A DNA stretch of 64,000 nucleotides, from positions 5,248 through 69,247 of the forward strand of contig LSSJ01000021.1 in assembly GCA_001595785.1 (NCBI GenBank), read 5' to 3'. Below are positions 21,894-64,000 of this stretch, in pieces. This DNA comes from Euryarchaeota archaeon SM23-78. Its GTDB lineage: Archaea; Nanobdellota; Nanobdellia; Woesearchaeales; SM23-78. The translations under genes and the position numbers were made by a program. Numbering within the stretch: position 1 is the stretch's first letter; each line of letters starts with the position of its first letter. Under the pieces are notes generated by a model that worked only from the letters and a program-made list of their open reading frames with translations, was not told the origin of the DNA and did not search any database.

Positions 21894-21917
21894 CTCGCGA
21901 GCTTTGCGAGCGAGCAA
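21894..21917 (+). repeat. GA-flanked hairpin repeat, solo copy 1 (CTCGC-GA-GC-TTT-GC-GA-GCGAG-CAA)
   Basis: Identical over 25 nt to the copy at 63707-63731. First element of the archaeal-side repeat family, 45 nt upstream of the RHH gene. Confidence 0.7.
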
Positions 21918-21961: not shown

Positions 21962-22231
21962 ATGGTAATGGATACTTTGCAAATAAGATTAACACAGGAA
22001 ATGATAAAACTAATAGATTCGTTTGTAAAAAAAGGCATATACAACAGCAGATCTGATGTGATAAGAGATGCTGTCAGAAGACTTGTGTGGAAGAAAGAAG
22101 TAGGAACAATCCCAAACACAGGAGACTCTGTCAAAGAAATAAGAGAGATAAGAAAAAAGCTTTCAAAAGAAATAAAGAGCTTCAAAGACATAGAAAAAAT
22201 CAATAAAGAATTCAAACATCTAATCAAATAA
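21962..22231 (+). CDS. CopG/RHH-family DNA-binding protein (antitoxin-like)
   Basis: N-terminal ribbon-helix-helix pattern LQIRLTQEMIKLIDSFVKKGIYNSRSDVIRDAVRRLV. Confidence 0.65.
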   Translation: MVMDTLQIRLTQEMIKLIDSFVKKGIYNSRSDVIRDAVRRLVWKKEVGTIPNTGDSVKEIREIRKKLSKEIKSFKDIEKINKEFKHLIK

Positions 22232-22667
22232 AGTCCTCTGGCATGCCTACTCTAATAATTTTTTTTGCAACTTTAATTAATTTTTTATCTCTAGTTACAA
22301 GTGTAAAGTTAAATCTCTTACATACTGCTATGTGTAAACAATCCATAAAGCTTATGTCATAACAAGAATTAGATTCTAATTCCCTAGCAAAGGCATAATC
22401 TTCTTTAGTAGCCTTCACAAATCTAAAATATTTCTCCTTATTAAACAGAGATGTTTTTTGTTTAAACAATTCCTTATTTTTAATCTTAAACCACAATTCT
22501 TTAAGAACAAAACCCGAGTATATTACTTCTTTATTATTTGAACAAGAAACATTTTCAAGAAAATTCCTTGACATTTCCCAAAAGAGCTTATTTTTATCTT
22601 TACCTATTTCCTTCCACCAAATATTAAGGTAAACACAAGCATCTAGATAATAAGATTCTTTATTCAT
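22224..22667 (-). CDS. PIN-domain protein (VapC-like)
   Basis: YYLDACVYLN (first acidic residue) and DCLHIAVCKRFNFTLVTRDKKL (C-terminal TxD). 147 aa. Confidence 0.6.
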   Translation of the reverse strand: MNKESYYLDACVYLNIWWKEIGKDKNKLFWEMSRNFLENVSCSNNKEVIYSGFVLKELWFKIKNKELFKQKTSLFNKEKYFRFVKATKEDYAFARELESNSCYDISFMDCLHIAVCKRFNFTLVTRDKKLIKVAKKIIRVGMPEDFI

Positions 22668-37163: not shown

Positions 37164-37255
37164 CTCGCGAGCAAGGCGAGCGAGCAAAGTTATTATTATT
37201 TTATTTTTATTATTTTAAACTTAAATTCATTAGTCCTCAAACGCCGGACGGGCTT
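37164..37255 (+). repeat. composite intergenic repeat (GA-hairpin copy 2 + AT-rich spacer + TTCATTAGTCCTCAAACGCCGGACGGGC)
   Basis: Hairpin CTCGCGAGCAAGGCGAGCGAGCAA at 37164-37187. The end block matches 47257-47280 (reverse complement) and 48949-48968 (reverse complement). Confidence 0.65.
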
Positions 37256-44584: not shown

Positions 44585-44599
44585 TTTCAAATCTTGAAT

Positions 44600-44742
44600 G
44601 GGCCGGACGAGACTTTCCAGGAAATAATTCCCTTTTGAACTCGCGACCACACGATTACTTTTCCTTATGATTAAAAGTCGTGTGCTCTAACTCCCAAGCA
44701 ATGCAAAATTGCAAAGGCTTACCAGGCTGAGCTACCGGCCCA
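44600..44742 (-). tRNA. tRNA-Lys(UUU) with three introns (D-loop, canonical 37/38, T-loop 59/60)
   Basis: Manual fold. Acceptor GGGCCGG/CCGGCCC plus discriminator A; D stem GCTC/GAGC; anticodon stem CACGA/TCGTG with loop CTTTTA|A; T stem GCGAG/CTCGT with loop TTCAAA|T. Intervening blocks lie at about 44691-44720, 44657-44672 and 44614-44634. No encoded CCA. Confidence 0.75.
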
Positions 44743-44807
44743 GATTCTCTGGCCGGCAAACAAAAATCGCTGAGCGATTTTTGGGCCGTCCAGTTCGCTT
44801 TTCAAGC

Positions 44808-44961
44808 GCCCTGGCCGGGATTCGAACCCGGGTCGAAGCCTTACCACGACTCAAAAATCATTAATGAATAATGATTATAAGTTCTCGACAGGGCTTCATG
44901 ATAGTTGCTGCAGGGAACCCCCGGACGGGTTACCGCTGGGCCAGACTACACCACCAGGGCT
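44808..44961 (-). tRNA. tRNA-Asp(GUC) with two introns (D-loop and anticodon loop)
   Basis: Acceptor GCCCTGG/CCAGGGC plus discriminator G; GGTGTAGTCTGG..TCATG D-arm; anticodon stem AAGCC/GGCTT with loop CTGTCG|A; T arm CCGGG-TTCGAAT-CCCGG. Exon sequence closely follows typical archaeal tRNA-Asp. Introns at about 44905-44940 and 44843-44886; D-loop boundary is +/- a few nt. Confidence 0.7.
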
Positions 44962-47256: not shown

Positions 47257-47342
47257 AAGCCTGTCCGGTGTTTGAGAACTCGAGATTTATTATTTAAAAT
47301 TTAAAAGAAAATTATTATTTGCTCGCTCACTACGTTCGCGAG
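47257..47342 (-). repeat. composite intergenic repeat (GA-hairpin copy 3 + AT spacer + end block), between convergent genes
   Basis: The minus strand reads CTCGCGAACGTAGTGAGCGAGCAA (47319-47342), then a T-rich spacer, then ..GTTCTCAAACACCGGACAGGCTT. It lies directly 3' of the uppS stop. Confidence 0.65.
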
Positions 47343-48725: not shown

Positions 48726-48946
48726 AAAAAGCCCGTCCGGCGCAAGTTTTACGAAAACTTGACTAAAGTGTACTACACTCGCAACAAAAACGTTGCTCGG
48801 TAGCACGGATAGGGGACTCCGGCCGAAGGCTAGGAGTCGCCTGCCTTTTGTAAACTCATCAGAAATGCTTAGCATTTCTGGAAGTCCCAAAAAGCTTTGC
48901 TTTTTGATGACTTTTGGTAATGAGCGTTAGCGAACGGGCGAAAAGT
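48726..48946 (-). ncRNA. candidate structured ncRNA A (paralog of 60920-61145), class unknown
   Basis: TATA-like TTTAAATTAAAT lies about 30 nt upstream. The 5' GCCCGT can pair with the 3' ACGGGC, followed by TTTTT. Internal hairpins are present. It shares a 35-nt 5' block and a covarying hairpin with element B. The downstream CBS gene has its own TATA. Confidence 0.35.
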
Positions 48947-48948
48947 TT

Positions 48949-49072
48949 GGCGTTTGAGGACTGATGAAAAATTTAATTTAAAATTAAAAAAACAAAGTTA
49001 AAATAAAATTTCAAAATTAAAAATTTAAAAAAAAATAATAATAACTGTGCTCGCTCACCTTCGGTTCGCGAG
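48949..49072 (-). repeat. composite intergenic repeat (GA-hairpin copy 4 + long AT spacer + end block)
   Basis: The minus strand reads CTCGCGAACCGAAGGTGAGCGAGCA (49048-49072), then a T-rich spacer, then TTCATCAGTCCTCAAACGCC. It lies directly 3' of the stop of gene 49087-50970. Confidence 0.65.
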
Positions 49073-60877: not shown

Positions 60878-60919
60878 ATTAGATTTTAAGAATTGACGTA
60901 TTTAAATGTTGCGATTAAC

Positions 60920-61145
60920 TTTTCGCCCGTTCGCTACGCTCACTACCAAAAGTTAACAAAAGGCAAGCGGTTCCTAGCACAAAAACGTGCCGGAACCCCT
61001 TATAGGCTGAGCAAGGGTGGGTGAGGCCTATTTGCGAGGGCAACATCTACTTTATAATCAAAGCGGAACAGGGGGACGCCCCATCCGGGGAGGTGAAGCT
61101 CTCGGTTAAGTAAACGTGCCTGAGCTGGCCCCACCCTTGCGAAGC
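60920..61145 (+). ncRNA. candidate structured ncRNA B (paralog of 48726-48946), class unknown
   Basis: TATA-like ATTTAAAT lies about 14 nt upstream. It shares the 5' block TTTTCGCCCGTTCGCTACGCTCACTACCAAAAGT and hairpin GGTTCC..GGAACC with element A. In the 3' domain, GCT-GA-GCAAGGGTGGG pairs with CCCACCCTTGC-GA-AGC. Confidence 0.35.
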
Positions 61146-61204
61146 ATAATCATACCAGAACTCAATGCTAATCCTCAATACAAAAATAACAACCCAAATC
61201 AAAA

Positions 61205-63236: not shown

Positions 63237-64000
63237 TTACCTTATCTTCCCCTCAACTCCTTTCTCTACTATTAGCTCTTCATCACCTGCTTTCATTACT
63301 TTATCTTCAGAATAAGATTTTCCTTCTTTTGCCCTCATCTTCACACTTTTGAATTCTTCGAGTGTAATGATTTCATTGTTTGGCTTTGCTCCTTCTATCA
63401 GTACTTGTGTGCCTGGCTCTGCTTTCTTAACTGTTACTAAGCCTAGTTTTCCTGCTTTTTCAACAGCTAATAGCATTCCATTTGATTTTTCTCCTCTTAG
63501 CTCTGCTGGCTGCAAATTGGTTACTACAATTATTTTCTTATCTTTTAATTCTTCATTCTTATACCAAACCTTTATTCCAGCAACAATTTGTCTCTCCTCC
63601 CTGCCAAGATCAAGTTTTAGTATGATTAACTTATCAGCTTTGGGATGGTCTTTTACCTCTTTTATCTTCGCAACTTTGAGGTTGAGCAGGTTAAAACCCT
63701 TTTTTTCCTCGCGAGCTTTGCGAGCGAGCAATGAAGATTTTTCTTTCTTTTCTTTTTCTTCTTTTTTACCAACACCACTGAACTGCTCTTTCATCTTCTT
63801 CTTCTCATCATCAACTAACTTATTAAACAACACTTCTGCTTTTCCTATCTTGTGTCCTTTATCCAGGCTAAGAACTCCTAGGTTATCCCATTTCTGAGGT
63901 TCAATATTTAGTTGCTTAAAAATCTTCTCTGATGTGAATGGCAGGTAAGGCTCGCACAGGATTCCTATGTCTTTCACAAGATTAGCAAGGATGTATAATG
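63237..64000 (-). CDS. metG: methionyl-tRNA synthetase, C-terminal part (gene continues beyond the window end)
   Basis: The frame is open to position 64000 (..NLVKDIGILCEPYLPFTSEKIF). C-terminal Trbp111/EMAP-like tRNA-binding domain (LNLKVAKIKEVKDHPKADKLIILKLDLG..GEKSNGMLLA). Confidence 0.85.
   Translation of the reverse strand, partial: LYILANLVKDIGILCEPYLPFTSEKIFKQLNIEPQKWDNLGVLSLDKGHKIGKAEVLFNKLVDDEKKKMKEQFSGVGKKEEKEKKEKSSLLARKAREEKKGFNLLNLKVAKIKEVKDHPKADKLIILKLDLGREERQIVAGIKVWYKNEELKDKKIIVVTNLQPAELRGEKSNGMLLAVEKAGKLGLVTVKKAEPGTQVLIEGAKPNNEIITLEEFKSVKMRAKEGKSYSEDKVMKAGDEELIVEKGVEGKIR
63708..63731 (+). repeat. GA-flanked hairpin repeat, copy 5, inside the metG coding sequence (antisense orientation)
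   Basis: CTCGCGAGCTTTGCGAGCGAGCAA is identical to copy 1. In the metG frame it encodes LLARKAREE within the K/E-rich linker. Confidence 0.7.

Follow-up and report, generated by a model that had tools for sequence, protein, structure and literature searches.

Two related intergenic elements in a woesearchaeal genome

The window analysed here, a 64,000-nt stretch of genomic DNA from Ca. Woesearchaeota, carries two related non-coding elements, A and B, which lie among core genes (e.g., the rpo operon and CBS-uppS). A precedes a CBS-domain gene within the order NTP-transferase, CBS, prenyltransferase, AMMECR1 and rpoL, and B precedes a pyrophosphatase gene (Table 1). The CBS protein adjoining A has hundreds of homologues labelled Ca. 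Woesearchaeota or Nanoarchaeota. An earlier inspection of the letters (the sequence-only reading) had proposed that A is a discrete ncRNA gene of ~220 nt with its own TATA box, a closing helix and an oligo-T end, and that B is its paralogue.

All sequence features listed in that proposal are present at 48948–48726 on the minus strand. The conserved 5′ block of A starts at 48948/48947, the region ends in GCGCCGGACGGGC followed by TTTTT (48743–48726), and both an inverted-repeat check and the fold indicate that the 5′ GCCCGT and the 3′ ACGGGC are able to pair. The minimum-free-energy fold of A (−87.3 kcal/mol, z = −6.9, none of 200 shuffles as stable) contains every named hairpin, six in number. 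The kinship of A and B is likewise borne out by conserved, covarying modules: their 5′ blocks are identical at 46 of 51 bases, and they have in common a ~90-nt core that consists of a stem-loop (SL1) with a 24–25-nt loop followed by a hairpin (HP), including the ACAAAAGGCA-hairpin module. For a pattern built on the 5′ block in A's form, 0 chance matches are expected in the window.

The covariance search against Rfam 15 that had been suggested for A returned no family at gathering threshold in the whole window, in agreement with the reported lack of SRP RNA, RNase P RNA and 5S rRNA signatures; at E ≤ 10 there was only noise around A and nothing around B. A tRNA/tmRNA scan gave nothing at the element, a BLAST search of B against annotated plasmids and phages gave no match, and a literature search for the loop sequence retrieved unrelated primers only. 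The CBS gene downstream of A has its own TATA box (48711–48701, ~23 nt before the ATG), which is conserved at the orthologous locus, in line with the earlier view that A is not simply the 5′ UTR of this gene.

Table 1. Positions of the elements, their parts and the companion motifs in the window and on related contigs (L numbers).
Feature	Position	Strand	Basis or remark
Element A proper, tail-to-tail core doublet, 206 nt	48743–48948	−	Comparison with uninterrupted motif X at 37233–37255; covariance-model matches on both strands
SL1 of A, stem ACTTTT/AAAAGT closing the 25-nt loop CGCCCGTTCGCTAACGCTCATTACC (48940–48916)	48910–48948	−	Loop comparison, six family members
Optional two-hairpin insert of A, CATC...GATG, CAAAAAGC/GCTTTTTG and CAGAAATGC/GCATTTCTG	48857–48909	−	Long versus short family forms
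HP module of A, AGG-C-GACTCC-TA-GCC(TTC)GGC-C-GGAGTC-C-CCT	48811–48842	−	Fold; covariation in basal, middle and inner stems
Inverted degenerate second core in the 3′ half of A	48741–48810	+	Model R1, 20.7 bits, E = 0.0025
TATA-like string TTTAAATTAAAT ahead of A	48983–48972	−	
Left half of interrupted motif X, GTCCTCAAACGCC	48949–48961	−	Comparison with uninterrupted X
Second CGCC, then right X half GGACGGGC, then T5	48726–48742	−	Comparison with uninterrupted X
Uninterrupted motif X, empty site, GTCCTCAAACGCC^GGACGGGCTT	37233–37255	+	Between rpoA″ stop and L30e promoter
Second uninterrupted motif X, 3 mismatches	47257–47279	−	Just after AMMECR1 stop codon
Uninterrupted motif X on related contig	L074 2735–2753		
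Motif Y, CTCGCTC-loop-TCGCGAG	49050–49072	+	One of 5 copies in the window
Other copies of motif Y in the window	21894–21914, 37164–37184, 47322–47342, 63708–63728		
Motif Y on related contig	L074 2981–3002, 6914–6935		
Copy B as a whole	60914–61150	+	
Core of B, short form	60914–61005	+	Model R1, 116.8 bits
SL1 of B, stem TTAACTTTT/AAAAGTTAA	Loop 60924–60947	+	
HP module of B	60965–61001	+	
3′ domain of B, separate structured segment	61006–61150	+	Fold; module comparison; metagenome depth
160-nt element of a relative, NTP-transferase/CBS spacer	L086 4788–4960 (= L087 1870–2040)		
Copy L070, short form			Between a 123-aa gene and dnaJ
Copy L073 = L074, long form, tail-to-tail doublet			Core 2–4 nt after stop (L074)
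Copies L079 and L081, long form			Core 50–80 nt after stop of unrelated genes
Copy L029, short form			Antisense to both neighbour genes; abuts vapB start (vapBC-type operon)

A family of cores with covarying structure

An exact scan for the loop pattern in one genome per GTDB species and in JGI metagenomes was used to search for further family members. The GTDB scan gave a single archaeal match, in a Ca. Woesearchaeota MAG (L029), and the JGI scan gave five further archaeal-type loci as well as two contigs identical to A. The copies on these other contigs, which belong to Ca. Woesearchaeota and close relatives, begin 2–80 nt past the stop codon of unrelated genes, the shortest distances (2–4 nt) being those of L070 and L074, and one copy is antisense; some precede dnaJ or an unrelated 217-aa gene. 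The core is much more strongly conserved than the sequence around it: across contigs with unrelated flanking genes it is 94–99% identical, e.g., 98.8% over 86 nt between B and L029 and 94% over 83 nt between B and L070, and L079 and L081 have the element and ~30 nt of flank in common while their upstream genes differ.

Each unit is laid out as a terminal SL1 with a 24-nt loop, then ACAAAAGGCA, then the three-tier hairpin HP. Long forms (A, L073/L074 and L079) carry an insert of 53 nt with two hairpins, which is missing in the short forms (B, L029 and L070). Thus, the unit is found alone (B, L029, L070), with the insert, or as a tail-to-tail doublet in which one arm is degenerate (A, L073/L074). 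When R1, a covariance model of the core, was run over the window, it matched A, B and a third site, the inverted degenerate core within A, and on L073/L074 it recovered the same tail-to-tail architecture (53.5 bits). In the second core of A the SL1 loop has shrunk to 3 nt (CAAGTTTT-ACG-AAAACTTG) and HP reads GTACTAC..GCAAC/GTTGC..GTAGCAC.

We aligned the 92-nt core of six sequences (A, B and four from other contigs). The SL1 stem AACUUUU/AAAAGUU becomes AGCUUUU/AAAAGCU in L070, and the SL1 loop is invariant in the six members apart from the n position, a single C/U change and one extra nucleotide in A. All three tiers of HP covary, the outer one as AAG/CUU, AGG/CCU and AUG/CAU, the middle one as GGUUCC/GGAACC and GACUCC/GGAGUC, and the inner one as GCAC/GUGC, GUCC/GGAC, GCC/GGC and GCAACA/UGUUGC. 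Over 21 pairs, 94% of the cells are paired and 8 pairs have changed on both sides; none of 500 shuffles was as good, and controls with slid pairing were 28–59% paired. Because the changes are compensatory and both kinds of control fail, we conclude that the core structure is under constraint, acting on RNA or on single-stranded DNA. The module ACAAAAGGCArGCG-hairpin-CCyTAT, whose arms had been described as differing by compensatory changes between A and B, retains this property in the four sequences from other contigs. The comparison of G.U with A.C ended in a tie, with one G.U for each strand, and was therefore dropped as a means of strand assignment. The mini-hairpin of the loop is more stable on the strand opposite to that of the core.

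Element A interrupts an intergenic repeat

A short motif, X (consensus GTCCTCAAACGCCGGACrGGCTT), lies directly after stop codons. At A this motif is split by 206 nt with CGCC on both sides: the tetranucleotide closes the left half of X at 48952–48949 and recurs at 48742–48739. Since X is intact at 37233–37255, at 47257–47279 and on contig L074, yet split by a CGCC-flanked segment at A, we interpret A as an insertion into X with a 4-bp duplication. Such a duplication was found at this one site only, and L073/L074 shows no clear target duplication. The ends of A form imperfect terminal inverted repeats (AAACTTTTCG... / ...CGTAAAACTTG; 8 of 11 terminal bases match between AAACTTTTCG and CAAGTTTTACG), because the doublet consists of two inverted cores; no terminal inverted repeats are seen at the single cores B, L029 and L070.

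These boundaries bear on what had been taken for the signals of an RNA gene. The features marking A are all there, while its extent has to be shortened to 48948–48743, and positions 48742–48726 are the target-site copy and the 3′ half of X, outside the element. The 3′ strand of the supposed closing helix and the T5 that follows coincide with the right half of X, which can pair with the loop only because X resembles the first half of the SL1 loop in opposite orientation.

A second companion motif, Y, is a hairpin of the form CTCGC-UC-(covarying apical stem-loop)-UC-GCGAG, with a symmetric UC/UC internal loop that reads GA/GA on the other strand, the same design as the GCGNAGC mini-hairpin with tandem G.A. 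Depending on its orientation, it lies immediately ahead of start codons or immediately behind stop codons. Together, the motifs make up a stop-X-spacer-Y-ATG cassette that recurs at 37.2 kb, 47.3 kb and 49.0 kb and in L074. The cassettes at 37.2 kb and 47.3 kb are without the element, and two cassettes point towards the 3′ end of a convergent gene, with no gene under their control. The TATA-like string credited to A sits in the AT-rich spacer of this cassette, which is also present without the element at 37.2 kb. As the comparison of these sites shows, the apparent closing helix, terminator and promoter of the proposed gene are borrowed from X and from the X-spacer-Y cassette.

Orthologous loci

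In a relative (L086/L087) the gene order around A is preserved and the CBS protein is 84% identical at the amino acid level. Of the CBS spacer only the promoter aligns, and the position of A is taken by a different structured element of 160 nt (z = −5.1) from which SL1 is missing. There is a common CAAAAAkC/GmUUUUUG-GGAC hairpin with a compensatory change, and the relative's element carries the GGGGnnnCCCCAUCCGGGG module known from the 3′ domain of B. Its start lies 5 nt past the stop codon, and it comprises 4–5 hairpins and a closing helix of 9 bp.

In the 3′ domain of B, a long-range helix of 11–12 bp (GCAAGGGTGGG/CCCACCCTTGC) encloses other repeated modules; one of them, GGGGGACGCCCCATCCGGGG at 61071–61090, is found again at L086 4909–4928. 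Metagenome depth is raised in the inner part of the domain only. Modules within this domain recur across the community, and the domain itself is missing upstream of the pyrophosphatase genes of relatives. Since the closest pyrophosphatase orthologues have just 69–112 nt of upstream sequence, B is not a conserved leader of this gene. More generally, the orthologous CBS and pyrophosphatase loci of relatives are without the core.

Copy number, spread and expression

The established copies are the three cores that R1 detects in the 64-kb window, spread over two loci, and at least 5 further distinct contexts on other contigs. The sequence-only reading had held that many copies with a transposon-like distribution would mark the element as a MITE. 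The kind of distribution agrees with this, given the several contexts, the empty site and the inverted doublets; the number established in 64 kb is three cores at two loci, compared with the dozens of copies of which that reading spoke. Four marine-sediment metagenomes (DNA) contain the locus, and their contigs break at the element. The depth summed over the element modules is 5–30 times that of the flanks, with dozens of distinct flanking sequences. In the same runs, however, the T-arm of a tRNA gene (44808–44831) reaches a depth of about 1800 as a control, raised far more than the element, and we therefore dropped depth as proof of copy number per genome, because any sequence conserved across the community behaves likewise. 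The copy number per genome may be low, given that matches to the exact loop pattern are limited to one archaeal genome in GTDB and five distinct archaeal-type loci in JGI.

None of the RNA runs contains the element sequence. Scans of IMG/VR for the HP module and for the ACAAAAGGCA junction were empty, so that the archaeal element was not seen on viral contigs. Near the copies we found no transposase, integrase or HUH gene, and no such domain occurs among the 20 window proteins scanned with Pfam.

Nature of the elements

On balance, A and B appear to be copies of a new, lineage-restricted family of small palindromic repeats that lie between genes of Ca. Woesearchaeota, are constrained in structure and belong to the REP/REPIN or MITE type. 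This anatomy is suggested by the short palindrome, its occurrence as singlets and inverted doublets, the extragenic site after stop codons, the insertion with a short duplication, the compensatory change and the invariant motif. A maintained structure with an invariant loop is expected where a protein or the fold itself is recognised. The unit would spread as DNA, moved by a trans-acting transposase or HUH-type enzyme that recognises its folded ends, or through recombination between copies. Once settled, it would be transcribed together with the upstream gene, and its stable hairpins and the following T-run could then act as a 3′ end or as a terminator/insulator ahead of the next promoter. The element is probably co-transcribed in this manner, as a 3′-UTR or as terminator hairpins.

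An invariant loop and covarying stems are also expected of a functional RNA, and together with recombination-driven cassettes, a small-RNA family is a serious rival to palindromic repeats of the REP/REPIN or MITE kind. A and B would then be paralogous genes for small structured RNAs, each core being transcribed alone, with an invariant 24-nt pyrimidine-rich loop that binds a common target or protein and peripheral domains that vary. The 8 pairs changed on both sides, the very stable fold of A, the plausible T-runs or TATA-like strings beside A, B and L029 and the retention of the sequence across contigs all speak for such genes. However, the L070 and L074 cores start so close to a stop codon that there is no room for a promoter, the region upstream of the L029 core is the coding region of vapB, and the TATA and terminator of A belong to other repeats, so that we reject an independent sRNA gene with its own promoter for each copy. 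Inverted degenerate partners and an empty site would be unexpected for RNA genes, the core is missing from the orthologous loci, and the sequence is absent from the RNA runs. The wobble pairs do not favour either strand, and the opposite strand gives the stabler mini-hairpin in the loop. We therefore regard an RNA-gene family as unlikely, and the proposed ncRNA gene at A is largely replaced by a composite of mobile or duplicative palindromic repeats, in view of the inverted doublet inserted in X, the copies that have no promoter and the orthologous loci that have no core.

The elements could instead be composite terminator/promoter cassettes that were spread and homogenised by homologous recombination or gene conversion without transposition, by analogy with the PeSLs of T4-like phages. 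In favour of this, all copies have a stop codon on one side and, on the other, an AT-rich, TATA-like stretch leading to the next gene, and the stop-X-spacer-Y-ATG order recurs. PeSLs, which combine terminator and promoter in a small unit, mediate modular shuffling (PMC4122927), and an Aeromonas T4-like phage has the loop motif directly behind a stop codon, with an AT-rich stretch following. Against this, the precise interruption of X with its 4-bp duplication resembles an insertion rather than an exchange, and the two cassettes that face a convergent gene have no gene to drive, which leaves recombining cassettes rather improbable. It is far less probable still that A and B are riboswitch-like cis-regulatory leaders of the CBS-domain and pyrophosphatase genes. 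Both copies do lie upstream of a gene on the same strand, and CBS domains and a pyrophosphatase could have a ligand theme in common, but each gene has its own TATA box ~25 nt before the ATG, between element and gene, and the other copies precede dnaJ or an unrelated gene or are antisense. With orthologous CBS and pyrophosphatase loci that do not have the core, a riboswitch or 5′ leader was rejected.

Comparison with known repeat classes

REP elements and their doublets (REPINs) are mobilised by RAYT, an IS200-like Y1 transposase whose gene is usually flanked by REPs. REP sequences are usually species-specific, and REPs are known insertion targets for other elements. Like REPs and REPINs, the woesearchaeal repeats are short imperfect palindromes with conserved mismatches, are restricted to intergenic or 3′-UTR sites, occur singly or as inverted doublets whose fold is a long hairpin, and maintain their structure by compensatory change. 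The reverse complement of the loop, GGTAG-TGAGCGTAGCGAAC-GGGCG, also recalls the GTAG-type head beside the REP hairpin. Just as REPs receive other elements, the woesearchaeal family inserts into another repeat. It differs from REPs in its host, a DPANN archaeon, in its modular and larger unit of ~90 nt with two domains, and in a copy number that appears low. No RAYT or Y1 gene was found among the 20 window proteins, and the conserved motif of the family is found across phyla and domains.

With MITEs the elements have in common that they are non-coding, ~100–200 bp long, intergenic, present in several copies and involved in nested insertion, and the doublet A ends in imperfect terminal inverted repeats and is flanked by a duplication of 4 bp; this duplication was found at A, the one site concerned, and the empty site at 37233–37255. 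In contrast to MITEs, the single cores are without terminal inverted repeats, no IS with matching ends is known as a parent, and an invariant internal loop with covarying stems is atypical for decaying MITEs. In a published census, a woesearchaeal genome is among the most MITE-dense archaeal genomes, with 105 per Mb (PMC11602168).

PeSLs, the promoter/terminator cassettes of T4-like phages, are thought to act via homologous recombination (PMC2839356, PMC4122927). They resemble the woesearchaeal elements as small conserved stem-loops with an AT-rich promoter-like stretch between genes that are tied to differences in gene order, and the loop motif occupies the same position in Aeromonas T4-like phages. 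The archaeal element differs by its insertion-like junction.

Recognising A and B as repeats removes a false ncRNA candidate and illustrates how palindromic repeats nested in one another can give the appearance of an RNA gene with several helices, among them a closing helix, and with a promoter and a terminator. It also documents a structure-constrained repeat family with companion motifs X and Y in small DPANN genomes. Because intergenic space is scarce in these genomes, such elements probably shape the boundaries of transcription units in DPANN archaea.

The loop motif in other taxa

The loop core CCGTTCGCTnCGCTCAC(TA), 17–22 nt long, occurs at 48940–48916 (−) and 60924–60947 (+) in the window and at loci L001–L069, L083–L085 and L092–L099. 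The GTDB scan gave 73 matches, nearly all bacterial, against an estimated 1–3 expected. The motif lies in ~120-nt imperfect palindromes of Desulfuromonadales, Desulfobacterales and Desulfatiglandales, in which both sides of the internal loop are conserved, in ~380-nt tandem units of a Verrucomicrobiota MAG, in a 100-bp element with perfect 22-bp terminal repeats of a Chlamydiae MAG, and in other repeat families of other taxa. On plasmids it occurs as three tandem variants beside rep of Sulfuricurvum pSULKU04, immediately upstream of mobC on Rhodococcus pRDE04 and on Methanothermobacter pFZ1; single plasmid BLAST matches are weak (E = 2–7), and all cover the same 18 bases of the 42-base query. 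Aeromonas T4-like phages carry it three or four times per genome, right after a stop codon. Its 17–18-nt core is also found inside a genuine attC, that of the first cassette of a class 1 integron on P. aeruginosa plasmids. The archaeal copies are not integron attC sites themselves: the ends of A, B, L029 and L070 have no R″ (RYYYAAC) or R′ (GTTRRRY) core sites, and the copies lie among core genes.

Rfam searches with L029 and the bacterial motif elements, covering 15 loci, found no family at the motif, the sole match being a Cobalamin riboswitch elsewhere in L033. ORF clustering around 68 bacterial motif loci showed no protein family that recurs beside the motif; its sole hint was a group of four-helix-bundle ‘IVS’ proteins, which are not adjacent to it.

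On the reverse strand the motif reads GUGAGC-GnA-GCGAAC and corresponds to a GCGNAGC (B) or GCGNNAGC (A) mini-hairpin with tandem G.A flanks. Mini-hairpins of the GCGNAGC and GCGNNAGC types, described at single-strand initiation sites, are DNA folds of exceptional stability (PMC13037366). The likeness is one of sequence only, the loop reverse complement containing GCGTAGC in B and GCGTTAGC in A, so that the indel between the two loops keeps the mini-hairpin consensus. Read on the reverse strand, the HP loop of A is CCGAAGG, which is also given for ssiA of RSF1010 (PMC13037366), again a resemblance in sequence only. The mini-hairpin likeness hints at a role in single-stranded DNA. That the invariant loop core CCGTTCGCTnCGCTCAC is a portable, cross-domain signal of elements passing through single-stranded DNA is a speculative and doubtful proposition. 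If it were true, the woesearchaeal element would represent the archaea within a very widespread, undescribed class whose members are recognised by a common enzyme (a HUH endonuclease, primase or similar) or exploit a common physical property of the fold, and a genuine shared signal would suggest that bacteria, archaea, plasmids, integron cassettes and phages have a mechanism of mobilisation or priming in common. A resemblance of the loop reverse complement to a 23S rRNA helix sequence (AGCGAACGGG), seen by eye, was discarded as too weak.

Other features of the window and related contigs

Two tRNA genes with several introns lie at about 44590–44960 (minus strand) of the window and at L086 7603–7869. 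By eye, one is a Lys(UUU)-like gene with three inserts and the second has one or two. Both were missed by default ARAGORN and by Rfam at gathering threshold, and ARAGORN with introns allowed reported one gene with a 79-nt intron.

From position 1 to 21000 the window has plus-strand genes only, and many of their N termini resemble signal peptides, with no Pfam match in the two that were tested; the style of these genes is unlike that of the archaeal core-gene block at 35–47 kb (rpo operon, L30e, NusA, S12). Toxin-antitoxin pairs were seen at 21962–22667, with an RHH antitoxin and a PIN toxin, and at L029 2950–3538, with an AbrB-type antitoxin and a PIN protein, where the element abuts the start codon of the antitoxin gene on the opposite strand.
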